DNA from: Microgenomates group bacterium
GTDB lineage: Bacteria; Patescibacteriota; Microgenomatia; UBA12405
Assembly: GCA_049303675.1 (NCBI GenBank)
Contig: JBAQNJ010000001.1
Coordinates: forward strand, 344,711 to 408,710
Length of the DNA: 64,000 nucleotides
Reading direction: 5' to 3'
The translations under genes and the position numbers were made by a program. This document shows, one piece after another, positions 22,672-44,316 of this stretch. Below the pieces are notes generated by a model that worked only from the letters and a program-made list of their open reading frames with translations, was not told the origin of the DNA and made no database searches. How positions within the stretch are numbered: the stretch's first letter is position 1; every line of letters begins with the position of its first letter.

Positions 22672-22959
22672 AAACTACCATGTTAAAATCACAAGACCAC
22701 TCTCCAAAAGTTCCTTTTACAATATTTCAGTATGGTTTTCGACGCATTGATTTACTATCCAGTAGTCAGATATCTCAGCCGGTCACAAATACAAAAACAA
22801 TTGGTAGATTAGAAATTAAAATCACAAAAACTCCAGTAGTTGTAGATGGTAATGTCTCTCTGGGAGACTATGAATCGATACCCTGTGTCGATACAAAAAT
22901 TATCTGTAGATTGCTACCTCCCAAGGTAAGTAATTTTGGAATTTAGAATTGTTTTTTTC

Positions 22960-22987
22960 TGATCACTGATCACTGATCACTAATCAC
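22960..22987. repeat. tandem heptamer (TGATCAC)x3 + TAATCAC spanning the stop of the minus-strand gene
   Basis: ctgatcactgatcactgatcactaatcac; each unit carries a GATC. Confidence 0.6.
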
Positions 22988-23425
22988 TAGCTCTATCTCC
23001 ACCATCTCTCCATTCTCCAATCTTCTTTTTGTCCCTGTAATCAAATAAGTCATCATCTGAATCGCGAGTAGGTGGCTGACCACTAGTATAGTCTCGCCTT
23101 GTTTGTGATCAAACTTCACATCATCCAAAAACAATTCTATTCTGGCTTTCAATTTTTCATAGTTTTCCCTTTTGTGTTTTGGGCCGACTAGGCTAGTTAG
23201 ATGTATCGGCATATTATCCTCTCTTAGTCGCAATATTTCATCCAAAGTTTGCACACATCTTGGCTTTGAAGAACAATATATTGCATCAATTTTTTGTTCA
23301 ACTAGTTTTTCTCCCACTGATATAGATTGTTTCACTCCTGCCGCCGTTAAATTATTTTCACTACCGGCCACTTTATAGCCTCTGTTATGCGCCGACTCCC
23401 CGTGGCGAATCAATATTAGTTTCAT
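22970..23425 (-). CDS. histidine phosphatase (phosphoglycerate-mutase-like) family protein
   Basis: LILIRHGESAHN (RHG motif) at the N-terminus. Confidence 0.6.
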   Translation of the reverse strand: MKLILIRHGESAHNRGYKVAGSENNLTAAGVKQSISVGEKLVEQKIDAIYCSSKPRCVQTLDEILRLREDNMPIHLTSLVGPKHKRENYEKLKARIELFLDDVKFDHKQGETILVVSHLLAIQMMTYLITGTKRRLENGEMVEIELVISDQ

Positions 23426-38486: not shown

Positions 38487-39251
38487 ATGAAAAATTCAAC
38501 TATTTCAATCAAGCAAAAAATAATTGATACATTCAATACCTACGTCAGAGGCAAAACAGCCGATATTTCAGCCAGTAACCAAAAACATGATGGGCGCGGG
38601 GGTCATTGGCTGGAAACACAAATGGGGATAGTCCACAACCGCTCAAACTCGCCCGATATTGACGGTTTTGAAATGAAAAATAGCACATCTACAAAAACAA
38701 CTTTTGGTGACTGGTCAGCAGATTATTATATTTTCAAAGATAAAAATATTATCTTATCTCGAGACGAATTTATGCATATTTTTGGTAAACCAAATGTCAA
38801 CAAGGACATGAGATATTCATGGTCAGGTGAGCCTATTCCAAAATACAATAAATATAATAAATTCGGTCAAATACTCATAATTAGCCCCAACGAAGATATT
38901 ATTATCCAATATAACTTTTTAAAGGACTGTCGTCCTCACAAATCAGGAATCGTCCCCAAAAACCTCCAGCATGATAGCTTAATCCTAGCTAAGTGGAGTC
39001 GTAGTTGGATGAAAAAAAAGTTAGAAAACAAATTCAATAAACTCGGCTGGTTCAAGTGCCAGACGGATAAGAATGGTATATACACCAACATTGTATTTGG
39101 TGAGCCTATTCAGTGGGCTTCATGGCTGTCAGAAATCAAGAAAGGTTTGGTTTTTTTTGACAGTGGCATGCATCAAAACAATTCTAGAAATTATTCGCAT
39201 TGGCGCGCCAACAATAAATATTGGCAAGAAAAAATAACCAGCACTTATTAA
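38487..39251 (+). CDS. MutH/Sau3AI-family (GATC-type) restriction endonuclease candidate
   Basis: KHDGRGGHWLETQMG...PDIDGFEMKNST parallels the MutH region KGWIGVLLEIWLG...DFAALGVELKT, including the PD-(D/E)xK catalytic motif; convergent with the adjacent C5-MTase. Confidence 0.55.
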   Translation: MKNSTISIKQKIIDTFNTYVRGKTADISASNQKHDGRGGHWLETQMGIVHNRSNSPDIDGFEMKNSTSTKTTFGDWSADYYIFKDKNIILSRDEFMHIFGKPNVNKDMRYSWSGEPIPKYNKYNKFGQILIISPNEDIIIQYNFLKDCRPHKSGIVPKNLQHDSLILAKWSRSWMKKKLENKFNKLGWFKCQTDKNGIYTNIVFGEPIQWASWLSEIKKGLVFFDSGMHQNNSRNYSHWRANNKYWQEKITSTY

Positions 39252-40231
39252 TCAAAAATTCCGGTTTCTTTAATTTTTTTTGCTAGTGCCCTTATCACGG
39301 GCACAGCCACGCTATTACCAAATTGCTTGTATGCTTGAGCGTCACTCACAGGGATAACAAAACTATCAGGGAAACCTTGCAGTCTGGCAGCCTCTCTCGG
39401 TGTTAATTTTCGCGGATTTTTATTTTTTTGTTCTATCAAAATTTCTGACCCATCCTTGTAATATCTTGCCGAAATAGTGCTGGTGTAGGGACTGTTTTCA
39501 TTAAAAAGGCAATATCCAAACCCATTACCCTTTATTGCATGTTCTTTTCTCCGTCTTTGATGTCCCGCCCACAATCTGTCTGAAATTGTGTATTTATTGT
39601 CAACTTTATTTTCTAGTATATCTCCGACCTTTGTTGTCTTGTTTAACTCATCAGGGTATTCAAATTTTACATCTTTTCTAAATCCAATAATATATATTCT
39701 AGCTCTATTTTGCGGTAGTCCAAAATTTTTAGCATTCAGTATTTTATAGTGCATTTTATAGCCCAGTTTTTCCAAAGTCCCTAGAATTACTTTCAAAGTG
39801 TTTCCCTTATCATGACCTGCCAAGTTTTTTACATTTTCCAAAAATACAACTTTAGGTTTGTGATGTTTGATTATTTTGACAATATCAAAAAAAAGTGTAC
39901 CCCTCGTATCAGCAAATCCTTTTTTAAAACCAGCTTGTGAAAACGGTTGACAGGGGAACCCCGCCAACAGTACATCAAAGGGCTTTATTTCCGATGGCTT
40001 AATTTTTGTAATGTCCCCATATGGTATTTCATTAAAATTTGTTTGATAGGTCTTTTGAGAGAAGTTATTCCACTCTGAGGTAAACACGCACTCCCCACCA
40101 ATACTCTCAAATCCAATTCTGATTCCTCCTATACCAGCAAATAGGTCTATGAATTTAAATTTATGTTGCATGTTTCTAATAGTTTTAGAAAATAAGTCAT
40201 TTACAATTATTCTTGGCCTAGTCTGATTCAT
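39248..40231 (-). CDS. DNA (cytosine-5)-methyltransferase
   Basis: Motif I FIDLFAGIGG, motif IV GFPCQPFSQAG, motif VI ENVKNL, motif VIII QNRARIYIIGF. Confidence 0.85.
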   Translation of the reverse strand: MNQTRPRIIVNDLFSKTIRNMQHKFKFIDLFAGIGGIRIGFESIGGECVFTSEWNNFSQKTYQTNFNEIPYGDITKIKPSEIKPFDVLLAGFPCQPFSQAGFKKGFADTRGTLFFDIVKIIKHHKPKVVFLENVKNLAGHDKGNTLKVILGTLEKLGYKMHYKILNAKNFGLPQNRARIYIIGFRKDVKFEYPDELNKTTKVGDILENKVDNKYTISDRLWAGHQRRRKEHAIKGNGFGYCLFNENSPYTSTISARYYKDGSEILIEQKNKNPRKLTPREAARLQGFPDSFVIPVSDAQAYKQFGNSVAVPVIRALAKKIKETGIFD

Positions 40232-40308
40232 ATTTTAACTATTATCAATATGATTTGTGAAGTAACTAGATTATCACACGAACAAAACCCGAAGAAAAGT
40301 AGGTAAAA

Positions 40309-40728
40309 CTATAACACTTTTATCCTCTCAAAATTCTTCCCTTCCAACCCAGATATTTTCACGGGAACAACCTTATATTTGACCGCCTCCAGTTGTCTCG
40401 GAGTCATTATATATTCAATGTAGCCATCATTGTGAGGCTTCAATAGTCCCGCCCCCACCCAAAACTTTACCACCGATGTTTTGGCTGTCCCCGTGGCGAT
40501 AGCGCATTTTGCTGGAATGTTATTTACCAATATTTTTCCTTCGTTTCGGTAATATGGCCGGCGCTTACTTGCCAGTGAATAGGCGTCGTGAACTAACTGA
40601 ACTTTTTCTCGCCATTGTCCATCACTTATTTGCCCATCTTTGGGCTTCACGTTCAGTTCCACTGTGGCGGCTTGTTGCGGTGTCAGTACTGGTAATCCGT
40701 TTGGCAGTTCCCCCTTCAGTTTTTCCAA
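40309..40728 (-). CDS. hypothetical protein downstream of the MTase
   Basis: 139 aa ORF; no recognisable motif (not Vsr-like). Confidence 0.3.
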   Translation of the reverse strand: MEKLKGELPNGLPVLTPQQAATVELNVKPKDGQISDGQWREKVQLVHDAYSLASKRRPYYRNEGKILVNNIPAKCAIATGTAKTSVVKFWVGAGLLKPHNDGYIEYIMTPRQLEAVKYKVVPVKISGLEGKNFERIKVL

Positions 40729-40740
40729 GTTTTGTTGATA

Positions 40741-41262
40741 TTACTTTTCAAACAGTTCCTGACTCTCATACTGTTCAATCAGTCGGCTCAAACTGAATCT
40801 AAAATTAGTCGGCAAATATGAATTGACCAATTCAACTAATTTTCTAAAACTATTTATATATTTTTTTATATCCTCTTCCGCCACATTATTTATTTGCGGG
40901 ACAAACACATCCTCCGAGAAAAAATCAAAATTCACTCCCGCCTCAAAACTGGCGGCAATTGGCATTAGCCATTTGGCAAAATAAATTAAGGTAAATAATT
41001 CTGCCCAGTCGACTTCTGGTGTCTCTTCTAGTCTCCACAACTTATATCCTCCAAAATCCCAGACCAAATTTATTGGAGTATTACTAGCAATTGATTCATT
41101 TATTATTTTTGTTAAATGATTCCTAAAATCATTATCTACAGCATATTTTCTGAACTTTTTTGATAATATAGTTTTCTCAATCACCTGCCCCAACTCACCC
41201 TCAGTCTTGGGCTGGTTTTTTAGGCTATTCAACTCACGAGTTATATATTCATCAGGCGTCAC
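40741..41262 (-). CDS. hypothetical protein
   Basis: 173 aa ORF. Confidence 0.3.
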   Translation of the reverse strand: MTPDEYITRELNSLKNQPKTEGELGQVIEKTILSKKFRKYAVDNDFRNHLTKIINESIASNTPINLVWDFGGYKLWRLEETPEVDWAELFTLIYFAKWLMPIAASFEAGVNFDFFSEDVFVPQINNVAEEDIKKYINSFRKLVELVNSYLPTNFRFSLSRLIEQYESQELFEK

Positions 41263-43425: not shown

Positions 43426-44316
43426 ATGAAAAAAACTATCTTACTTGCCTCCGTCCTTTTGTCCTCATTATTTGTTGTCAAACCCTCGTTGGCTGCTACA
43501 GTCTGTAATGACGTATTAGATCAGCAACAGTTGCTCCGAAACGGAGGAATTAGTGCTCGCACTCTCCTCGGCTACAAAGTTGGACAGTCTTTTACTGCCA
43601 GTGCTACCGGAATTCTTTCAAAAATTGAAATAGGTTTCTACAATGAGTTCAACCCAACAGGTACTATAGACATATATGAAGGTAATGGTATTAGTGGAGC
43701 ACTCCTATCTACCCAACATGTTAACGGTGGATACTGCCTCATGGCAGACTGTAGTGCACCATTTACAGTTAGTGCCCCAGTAGTTGCCGGTCAAATATAT
43801 ACTTTCGTATTTACCCCAGATGCAGGGATGTCGGACCCATTCTTAATTTCACTTTCTAGTTTCAACCCCTATTTAGGCGGTGAAATGATCCAGGTGGATA
43901 CTGCTGGTGTCTATTTTCTCAGTAAATACAATTATGATATGAAATTTTCAACCTACATTCAGGACGTGACCTGTAGCGTCGCTCCAACTGTCGCTCCAAC
44001 TGTCGCACCAACTGTCGCTCCAACAGTCGCTCCAACTGTCGCTCCAACTGTCGCTCCAACTGTCGCTCCAACAGTCGCTCCGACTATTACTCCAACTCCT
44101 ATTGCTAGTACCGGCAAAAAAGTTGAGTCAAAAGGTAAAATCTCAGCAGTCACTGATAATTCAGTCACAGTCAACGGTATTCTTCTCCGCTTACTGCCTG
44201 AGACAGTTATTAAAATGAATTATGCTCCAGCCTTTGCCATTGGCCAAAGAGTCGAATACAAGGGTATTCTCAACACCGATGGATCAGTCAATCTTTCCAA
44301 GATAGAGATAAGATAA
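43426..44316 (+). CDS. secreted protein with (APTVA)n linker repeat
   Basis: Signal peptide MKKTILLASVLLSSLFVVKPSLA; 15-nt tandem repeat gtcgctccaactgtc x10 or so at 43975-44095. Confidence 0.45.
   Translation: MKKTILLASVLLSSLFVVKPSLAATVCNDVLDQQQLLRNGGISARTLLGYKVGQSFTASATGILSKIEIGFYNEFNPTGTIDIYEGNGISGALLSTQHVNGGYCLMADCSAPFTVSAPVVAGQIYTFVFTPDAGMSDPFLISLSSFNPYLGGEMIQVDTAGVYFLSKYNYDMKFSTYIQDVTCSVAPTVAPTVAPTVAPTVAPTVAPTVAPTVAPTVAPTITPTPIASTGKKVESKGKISAVTDNSVTVNGILLRLLPETVIKMNYAPAFAIGQRVEYKGILNTDGSVNLSKIEIR

Follow-up and report, generated by a model that had tools for sequence, protein, structure and literature searches.

A convergent LlaMI-family endonuclease and SsoII-type cytosine methyltransferase from a Microgenomates bacterium form a type II restriction-modification pair with CCNGG as its predicted target

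Plasmid pP62BP1 of Psychrobacter sp. DAB_AL62B carries restriction-modification systems (R-M1/R-M2) that combine a LlaMI-family endonuclease with a C5-cytosine (m5C) methyltransferase for CCNGG. In these systems, the genes are tail to tail and their stop regions overlap by 4 nt (PMC3346939). The endonuclease is 45-46% identical to R.ScrFI and R.LlaMI (PMC3346939), the prototypes of Pfam family PF09562, which are from Lactococcus lactis and act on CCNGG. A trait of the LlaMI family is a PD-x4-(D/E)XK motif with an unusually short spacer of four residues (PMC3346939). The partners of ScrFI and LlaMI are also m5C methylases for CCNGG, but the lactococcal systems also encode another methylase plus one additional ORF (COG4933), and their genes are not tail to tail (PMC3346939). 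We found a four-gene layout of the lactococcal type on a Vagococcus plasmid.

CCNGG is also the target of SsoII, Ecl18kI, and Kpn2kI, which are from enterobacterial plasmids. M.SsoII methylates C5 of the inner cytosine, and in SsoII-like methyltransferases, an N-terminal HTH domain of about 55-71 residues acts as a transcriptional repressor of the system (PMC6100179). The endonucleases of these systems are from an unrelated, base-flipping family that is dimeric or tetrameric (PMC2577355, PMC2978343). The genes of these systems are divergent. Their endonucleases cut before the first C of the site. Lastly, MvaI (CC^WGG) and BcnI (CC^SGG) are monomeric and distinguish between bases at the center of the site, where any base is accepted by the LlaMI family. 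Their partner methylases are N4-cytosine enzymes, not m5C enzymes. The structural similarity of MvaI to MutH has been published (PMC1874612).

We analyzed a 64-kb window (by which we mean the whole stretch of DNA under study) from an uncultivated Microgenomates bacterium. A sequence-only reading had proposed that two convergent genes in this window encode a Sau3AI/MutH-type endonuclease and an m5C methyltransferase, which would form a GATC-specific system. The two ORFs and their overlap are just as that reading described them (Table 1). The pair is indeed a type II restriction-modification system with a PD-(D/E)XK endonuclease and an m5C methyltransferase, but it is an ordinary one of the LlaMI/ScrFI endonuclease and SsoII-type methylase families, with CCNGG and not the Sau3AI site GATC as its predicted target. 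Unlike the pP62BP1 systems, which are on a plasmid, this pair is from a Microgenomates MAG, on a contig of 998 kb.

Table 1. Features of the restriction-modification locus, with positions in the window.
Feature	Position	Strand	Details
Restriction endonuclease gene, LlaMI/ScrFI family, predicted to be CCNGG-specific	38487..39251	+	254 aa; based on Pfam, PADLOC, pP62BP1 homology, and Foldseek
Catalytic core E43...P56-D57-x4-E62-x-K64	38613..38678	+	Motif invariant in 20 homologues
3'-end overlap of the convergent genes	39248..39251	.	4 nt; overlaps also in pP62BP1 and four metagenomic relatives
C5-cytosine methyltransferase gene; catalytic and TRD portion of the SsoII/Ecl18kI type, no N-terminal HTH	39248..40231	-	327 aa, or 307 aa from the alternative start at 40171
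TRD signature GNGFGYCLFNENSPYTSTISARYYK, methyltransferase residues 235-259	39455..39529	-	Exact match to G(K/N)GFx13T(I/L)x3YYK
Motif IV PCQ with the catalytic cysteine, methyltransferase residues 93-95	39947..39955	-	Motif located in the sequence
Promoter-like site upstream of the methyltransferase, TTCACA-18-TAAAAT	40232..40261	-	10/12; weak evidence only

The endonuclease matches PF09562 (RE_LlaMI) with 208.1 bits (the gathering score is 25), and the alignment covers positions 2-266 of the 266 in the profile and residues 21-254 of the protein. There is a weaker second match to PF15515 (MvaI_BcnI; 44.5 bits, cut-off 25), but the protein is far better explained by PF09562 than by this sister family. 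PADLOC's REase_II model also matches (245 bits), while none of the NCBIfam models do. At the sequence level, the endonuclease shares 53% identity with pP62BP1's LlaMI-family enzyme. We found 569 homologues, and every one listed has the same pair of Pfam matches; several are named "LlaMI family restriction endonuclease." The exact endonuclease is already in GenBank under this same name, from a Microgenomates MAG. The identical protein is also encoded on contigs from two further sequencing runs.

We then examined the functional residues of the endonuclease. The nine-residue PDIDGFEMK motif noticed in the sequence-only reading is present at residues 56-64 and, like GHWLE (residues 39-43), is invariant across 20 homologues. 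The PD-x4-ExK motif of the pP62BP1 endonucleases is at residues 56-64 as well, and D57, E62, and K64 have the same numbers there (PMC3346939). The spacing of the core (14/5/2) is that of Glu36, Asp50, Glu55, and Lys57 in MvaI (PMC1874612); the tetrad E-x13-D-x4-E-x-K is spaced identically in BcnI. All seven of the functional residues that were named for the pP62BP1 enzymes (PMC3346939) are present: D57, E62, K64, K101, K182, D225, and R240. Three of them, namely the C/G-recognizing D225 and R240 and the backbone-contacting K182 (D226, R241, and K183 in the pP62BP1 numbering), are invariant in alignment A1.

Sequence searches against the PDB were uninformative for the endonuclease: with the single sequence we found nothing meaningful, and a profile of 20 sequences gave only a marginal hit to BcnI (E = 0.32, over the catalytic core). 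So, we relied on a predicted structure (AF2; pLDDT 89.9) and on Foldseek. The top hits in the PDB were MvaI (2oaa, E = 1e-7) and BcnI (2odi, E = 5e-7). In fact, all six of the significant matches are to MvaI or BcnI, with E values from 1e-7 to 9e-5, TM scores of 0.57-0.61, and just 13-16% identity. Neither MutH nor Sau3AI is among these six or among the 50 matches listed. Nothing significant was found when we compared the model to viral structures.

As for the methyltransferase, the m5C motifs that had been reported for it are all there (FAGIG at residue 31, PCQ at 93, ENV at 132, and QNRAR at 174), along with REAARLQGFP at 279 and GNSV at 305, so that fold motifs I, IV, VI, VIII, IX, and X were all located. 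It scores 381 bits against PF00145 and 365 bits against TIGR00675. Alignments A2 and A3 show no variation at P93 and C94; Q95 is replaced by valine in M.Ecl18kI and M.Kpn2kI. There are two calls for the start codon: 327 amino acids (Logan), or 307 amino acids from Met21 at position 40171 (NCBI). Over the catalytic and target-recognition (TRD) portion, the protein is 63% identical to M.Ecl18kI (from pECL18) and M.Kpn2kI (from pKPN2), and the TRDs are near-identical. It is 52% identical to the methyltransferase of pP62BP1.

To compare specificities, a search of the PDB with the full-length protein is of little use, as M.HhaI (which recognizes GCGC) and Dcm-like chains score alike (about 260 bits). 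We therefore searched with the TRD alone, and compared the protein to characterized plasmid enzymes. The TRD hits only Dcm-like chains, and HhaI drops out. The signature G(K/N)GFx13T(I/L)x3YYK was proposed to be characteristic of m5C methyltransferases for CCNGG, from an alignment given as "data not shown" (PMC3346939). Besides the exact match in our protein, we found it in M.Ecl18kI, M.Kpn2kI, the pP62BP1 methyltransferase, and the A-type methyltransferase from Vagococcus. (In two other relatives, L008 and L009, GYGF takes the place of G(K/N)GF.) We did not find a second m5C methylase or another LlaMI-like gene elsewhere in the window.

CCNGG is strongly avoided in the host sequence. The window contains 29 CCNGG sites versus 102-122 expected (observed/expected or O/E = 0.24, z = -8.4), which makes CCNGG the most avoided of 59 palindromic patterns. 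Of all 1024 pentamers, the four with the strongest depletion are CCAGG, CCTGG, CCCGG, and CCGGG. GGCC and TGCA show weaker signals. Each quarter of the window has the depletion of CCNGG, and neither gene of the pair contains a CCNGG site. Around four related loci (6-9 kb), we counted 12 sites where 48.6 were expected. With avoidance this pronounced, 64 kb of sequence is enough for a resident system to show up in k-mer statistics. A caveat is that the avoidance could be due in part to other or past systems in the lineage that target CCNGG, CCWGG, or CCSGG. We also considered decay of CCNGG by deamination, but in what is a weak test, O/E was 1.11 for CTNGG and 1.08 for CCNAG, within the range of the other one-step neighbors (1.01-1.18), with no specific sign of deamination.

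The arrangement of the pair is conserved. A LlaMI-like endonuclease gene lies beside a gene for a CCNGG-type methyltransferase at five other loci, which are pP62BP1 and four metagenomic loci. At these four, the pair is convergent as well, with 3'-end overlaps of 4, 21, 21, and 17 nt, and the flanking genes are unrelated. At least two of the four are from genomes of candidate phyla.

The pair has one mild peculiarity: unlike its characterized relatives, the methyltransferase has no N-terminal regulatory domain of the HTH type. In the alignment, nothing corresponds to residues 1-70 of M.Ecl18kI, or to the regulatory domain of about 71 residues in the SsoII group, and motif I begins at residue 31 (or at residue 11 from NCBI's start). 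The pP62BP1 methyltransferase (424 amino acids) has an HTH_XRE domain at its N-terminus and 23 residues inserted after motif VI; both are absent from ours (307-327 amino acids). The domain is missing from the methyltransferases of the four metagenomic relatives, too. Using Pfam, PADLOC, and the methyltransferase alignment, we saw no evident controller protein or HTH domain at the pair. Two ORFs upstream of the methyltransferase (139 and 173 amino acids) were considered as controllers and rejected as part of the system: they have no hits from Pfam, NCBIfam, or PADLOC above the curated cut-offs and no HTH-type match. The 139-residue protein has only three homologues, and in the gene lists of the relatives, no similar pair of ORFs without Pfam hits recurs beside the restriction-modification genes. 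Promoter-like sites are not above background in this region (18 versus 15 +/- 4 in shuffled sequence), so we make no claim about regulation. If the promoter-like site in Table 1 is real, it would favor the start at Met21.

We weighed these results against other explanations for the pair. In the original proposal, a Sau3AI/MutH-type endonuclease and a methylase that forms GAT(m5C) would make up a GATC-specific system. It is easy to see where this came from: by eye, G36-x2-G39-x2-L42-E43-x3-G47-x9-D57 in the endonuclease is in the same register as G49-x2-G52-x2-L55-E56-x3-G60-x9-D70 in E. coli MutH, and the partner is an m5C enzyme. Sau3AI's partner methylase is an m5C enzyme as well. A MutH-like catalytic lobe has also been published for MvaI and BcnI (PMC1874612), and solely by way of that relationship, a distant likeness of the catalytic core to MutH does stand. 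What does not stand is any significant match of sequence or profile. The register is visible by eye only: Pfam's MutH model does not match the endonuclease at E <= 1, and in comparisons to E. coli MutH, BLASTP (E = 0.04-0.05) and hhalign (probability 0.1%) aligned the wrong, non-homologous regions. The spacer between the catalytic Asp and Glu is six residues in MutH (D-x6-ExK), versus four here and in MvaI and BcnI, and MutH and Sau3AI differ from our enzyme in the recognition lobe and the target. Together with RE_LlaMI's score, the Foldseek results, and a TRD of the SsoII type with the CCNGG signature, this refutes the GATC reading at the level of families, and we give it practically no chance of being correct. 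The sequence-only reading had itself named, as grounds for refutation, an HMM that puts the 254-residue protein into another family of nucleases, and the RE_LlaMI match does just this. It had also been argued that GATC is not depleted in the window, as would be expected if it were methylated. This carries no weight. In the present sequence, the resident system's target is itself strongly depleted. GATC occurs 180 times versus about 224-226 expected (O/E = 0.80, z = -2.9), as compared to 0.24 for CCNGG, although avoidance by itself neither proves nor excludes a system. (A tandem repeat of TGATCAC was reported at positions 22960-22987. It is present, but as (TGATCAC)3 followed by TAATCAC, and it is about 15 kb away from the pair, in the gap between two ORFs that converge.)

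Could enzymes of these same families have a narrower target, either CCWGG (as for Dcm and MvaI) or CCSGG (as for BcnI)? The endonuclease does exceed the threshold for MvaI_BcnI, and there is a good alignment of the TRD to 3lx6 and 3me5, which are Dcm-like chains. The methyltransferase also has 303 bits against the Dcm subfamily model (NF007772), but this is well below that model's cut-off of 710, just as the MvaI_BcnI score is far below that of RE_LlaMI. Furthermore, the spacer in the TRD signature is 13 residues, as in M.Ecl18kI, M.Kpn2kI, and the pP62BP1 methyltransferase, and not 15 as in the Dcm-like chains. Finally, both subsets of sites are depleted (O/E = 0.26 for CCWGG and 0.20 for CCSGG). 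We consider a narrower target to be very unlikely. Alternatively, the pair might no longer be a working restriction system, with for instance an active methylase and an inactivated or silent endonuclease. The lack of a recognizable HTH domain or C protein, and of a convincing promoter above the shuffled background, would fit with this. But the endonuclease is full length relative to its family profile, it retains every catalytic and recognition residue that is invariant in the 20 homologues, and it recurs unchanged in two other sequencing runs. Also, the convergent form without the HTH domain is found in all four of the metagenomic relatives we examined, so this is a normal form of the module. 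Loss of function is, in our view, very improbable indeed.

We are highly confident that the pair is a two-gene type II restriction-modification module that is specific for CCNGG; we infer this specificity from homology (53-63% identity) together with the avoidance of the site. The 63% identity to M.Ecl18kI, and the activity of M.SsoII (PMC6100179), suggest that the methyltransferase would shield the host's DNA by methylating both strands of CCNGG at the inner cytosine. The endonuclease, with the two-lobed fold of MvaI and BcnI, is predicted to be active on unmethylated CCNGG in incoming DNA. It would probably cut within the site, at CC^NGG, with expected 5' overhangs of 1 nt. It probably works as a monomer, nicking one strand and then binding the site again the other way round to cut the second strand. 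(This monomeric mechanism was shown for BcnI and MvaI; we did not find it for any LlaMI-family enzyme, and the TM scores of our model to those two structures are no higher than 0.57-0.61.)

How might such a module be controlled? We speculate that the balance of endonuclease and methyltransferase is set by convergent, overlapping transcription. A more elaborate version of this idea, which we put forward quite tentatively, is that modules without the HTH domain have swapped autoregulation by the methylase for control through the convergent 3' overlap (antisense transcription or transcriptional interference). This would be a minimal two-gene system for CCNGG with no protein regulator, in which a monomeric endonuclease would nick the strands one after the other, whatever the central base of the site.

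The main value of these results is a corrected annotation, in which CCNGG replaces GATC as the predicted specificity. The DNA of this uncultivated Microgenomates bacterium should carry C(m5C)NGG, and at these sites it should resist ScrFI, Bme1390I, and BstNI-type cutters that are sensitive to m5C. DNA that is brought into its relatives would need to be protected at CCNGG. With 569 homologues of the endonuclease, of which several have a source name from a candidate-phyla lineage, the module is apparently common.

The window contains two convergent ORFs that overlap by 4 nt (see table), where the sequence-only reading had placed them, and the motifs can all be located. The methylase has FAGIG, PCQ, ENV, QNRAR, REAARLQGFP, and GNSV. 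The endonuclease has GHWLE (residues 39-43) and PDIDGFEMK (residues 56-64), and the residues of both motifs are unchanged across an alignment of 20 homologues. The assignment of this pair to the Sau3AI/MutH family, with GATC specificity, was wrong: the endonuclease is of the LlaMI/ScrFI type and the methylase is of the SsoII type.

In Pfam, the endonuclease matches PF09562 (RE_LlaMI) across all 266 profile positions (208 bits, E = 2e-61), which puts it in a different nuclease family from the one proposed. It also has a weaker match to the sister family PF15515 (MvaI_BcnI, 44.5 bits), but no match to MutH at E ≤ 1. PADLOC labels it a type II REase (245 bits). A search among 5.8 billion proteins found 569 homologues, and both Pfam domains are present in every homologue among the matches listed. 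An identical protein in GenBank, on a 998-kb contig, is named [quoted passage not shown]. The closest relative in the plasmid collection is the LlaMI-family enzyme of the Psychrobacter plasmid pP62BP1 (53% identity, full length). The pP62BP1 REases share 45-46% identity with the Lactococcus lactis enzymes R.ScrFI and R.LlaMI, and their PD-(D/E)XK motif at residues 56-64 has an unusually short spacer of 4 residues (PMC3346939). Their D57, E62, K64, K101, K183, D226, and R241 are counterparts of functionally proven residues of MvaI (PMC3346939). All of these are present in our endonuclease (D57, E62, K64, K101, K182, D225, and R240).

With the 20-sequence alignment as input, AlphaFold2 gave a confident model of the endonuclease (mean pLDDT 89.9, pTM 0.85). 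Its six significant Foldseek matches in the PDB are all MvaI (2oaa, 2oa9) or BcnI (2odi, 2odh); their E values range from 1e-7 to 9e-5, and TM reaches 0.61. The match ranked next is at E = 0.6, and the PDB matches listed include neither MutH nor Sau3AI chains. The tetrad E43/D57/E62/K64 is spaced exactly as Glu36/Asp50/Glu55/Lys57 of MvaI (PMC1874612). What stands of the MutH claim is a superfamily resemblance that is real but very distant, and it is not evidence for the target. (The catalytic domain of MvaI has been likened to that of MutH, but their recognition domains differ; Kaus-Drobek et al., PMC1874612.) E. coli MutH (G49...E56...D70) and the endonuclease (G36...E43...D57) share the register G-x2-G-x2-L-E-x3-G-x9-D. 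But the spacer from Asp to Glu is x4 in the endonuclease and x6 in MutH, and BLASTP and hhalign comparisons with MutH gave no significance and aligned segments other than the shared register, so we consider the resemblance to be distant only.

The methylase matches PF00145 (381 bits). Across its full length, solved structures do not discriminate, as M.HhaI and Dcm-like chains score about 260 bits each. The recognition segment (TRD) searched alone has no matches other than two Dcm-like chains (3lx6, 3me5), whose TRD spacer has 15 residues. On the Dcm subfamily model, our methylase scores below the curated cut-off (303 versus 710 bits). The top matches in the plasmid collection (63% identity) are the methylases of pECL18 (Ecl18kI system) and pKPN2 (Kpn2kI system), along with those of Shigella sonnei plasmids, likewise of 4.2 kb. 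The TRD is nearly identical to that of these enterobacterial methylases (M.Ecl18kI, M.Kpn2kI). The target of M.SsoII is CCNGG, in which it methylates the inner cytosine at C5 (PMC6100179), and M.Ecl18kI is almost identical to M.SsoII (PMC3695355). G(K/N)GFx13T(I/L)x3YYK was proposed as a signature of CCNGG m5C methylases (PMC3346939). Our methylase matches it exactly at residues 235-259, including the x13 spacer that differs from 3lx6 and 3me5. The signature is also found in M.Ecl18kI, M.Kpn2kI, the pP62BP1 methylase, and one Vagococcus plasmid methylase.

We also compared site counts. The window has 29 CCNGG sites, while base composition predicts 102 and a maximal-order Markov model 122 (O/E 0.24-0.29). 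Among the 59 palindromic patterns of four, five, or six bases with at least 10 expected sites each, CCNGG is the most depleted by far (z = -8.4; GGCC is second, with z = -5.1). The depletion is seen in every quarter of the window (O/E 0.11-0.30), and also near four related R-M loci, in the surrounding 6-9 kb (12 sites versus 48.6 expected, pooled). CCAGG, CCTGG, CCCGG, and CCGGG show the strongest depletion among all 1024 pentamers. Because sites with W and S central bases are both depleted, we prefer CCNGG to CCWGG or CCSGG. Control patterns lack comparable depletion (O/E 0.95 for CCNNGG and 0.72 for GGNCC). GATC, which the sequence-only reading had called not obviously depleted, has O/E 0.80 (180 sites versus about 225 expected). 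The loss of CCNGG looks more like counter-selection than mutational decay, because the deamination products CTNGG and CCNAG show no special enrichment in the window, which is a weak test.

The next lowest palindromes are GGCC (180 versus 263 expected) and TGCA (102 versus 164, z = -4.8). The 64-kb window has no second m5C methylase or LlaMI-like ORF, and if these signals are true traces of R-M systems, the genes are elsewhere in the genome. GATC is markedly low around two of the related loci, L008 (12 versus 31.5 expected) and L009 (7 versus 25.4), from small counts in 8.7 kb each; the window has no comparable depletion. Those two genomes might have GATC-specific systems. The GATC-containing repeat reported earlier is (TGATCAC)3 followed by TAATCAC. 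It is preceded by a T7 run and lies in the gap between two convergent ORFs, partly over their last codons. It is 15 kb from the R-M pair and unrelated to it. Elsewhere, a 296-aa protein has nine tandem APTV repeats and an N-terminal hydrophobic segment that resembles a signal sequence by eye, with no Pfam match on record.

Features of the window
Feature	Coordinates	Strand	Size
Endonuclease ORF	38487-39251	+	254 aa
Methylase ORF	39248-40231	-	327 aa
Promoter-like site	40261-40232	-	
ORF immediately upstream of methylase	40309-40728	-	139 aa
Second ORF upstream of methylase	40741-41262	-	173 aa
ORF flanking repeat	22680-22946	+	
TGATCAC repeat	22960-22987		
ORF flanking repeat	22970-23425	-	
APTV-repeat ORF	43426-44316	+	296 aa

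Given its 63% identity to characterised enzymes, the methylase is predicted to modify CCNGG at its inner C, in both strands. The endonuclease would bind unmethylated CCNGG and cut within the site. ScrFI cleaves inside its site, at CC^NGG. (The cleavage position is worded otherwise, as "after the first cytosine", in PMC3346939.) Judging only from the similarity of fold, the endonuclease is probably a monomer that would cut one strand, turn, and cut the other. MvaI and BcnI are the model for such sequential cutting by a monomer (PMC1874612; PMC4081073).

An N-terminal HTH domain (about 70 residues) is the autoregulator in the SsoII and Ecl18kI systems (PMC6100179); it was experimentally shown for M.ScrFI, as reported by PMC3346939, and the pP62BP1 MTase is predicted to have it too. 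The domain is missing from our methylase and from those of the four relatives. The 139-aa and 173-aa ORFs have no match in Pfam, NCBIfam, or PADLOC above curated cut-offs and no HTH-type match. The 139-aa protein has just three homologues among the 5.8 billion proteins, and the relatives' gene lists have no comparable ORF pair beside the module. The start of the methylase is ambiguous: NCBI has 307 aa from Met21 (40171, -), while the Logan call and the longest ORF have 327 aa (40231, -). Alignments with homologues begin only near residue 20. The promoter-like site upstream, of a kind no commoner than in shuffled sequence, would favour the Met21 start if it is real. Speculatively, the balance of R and M expression may be set by convergent transcription.

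The pP62BP1 pair is likewise convergent, with 3' ends that overlap by 4 nt, a tail-to-tail arrangement described as uncommon (PMC3346939). (A Vagococcus plasmid has an alternative four-gene, ScrFI-like layout, unlike this two-gene pair.) In four metagenomic relatives (from Paceibacterota, Kaiserbacteria, a further bacterium, and a Logan contig), the pair is convergent with a 3' overlap of 4 to 21 nt. At L008 (5824-7886; Paceibacterota GCA_041389025.1), it adjoins a LexA-like gene and a Thoeris-like ThsB_TIR/ThsA_Macro pair, which suggests a small defence island; a LexA-like gene is next to the pair in L009 too. The genes flanking the pair in the four relatives are unrelated. R and M behave as a self-contained module. 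Overall, this is an ordinary type II R-M system with a LlaMI/ScrFI-type endonuclease and an SsoII-type methylase. Its predicted target is CCNGG, not GATC. It is an uncharacterised new member of known families, and its name in the automatic annotation is already correct.
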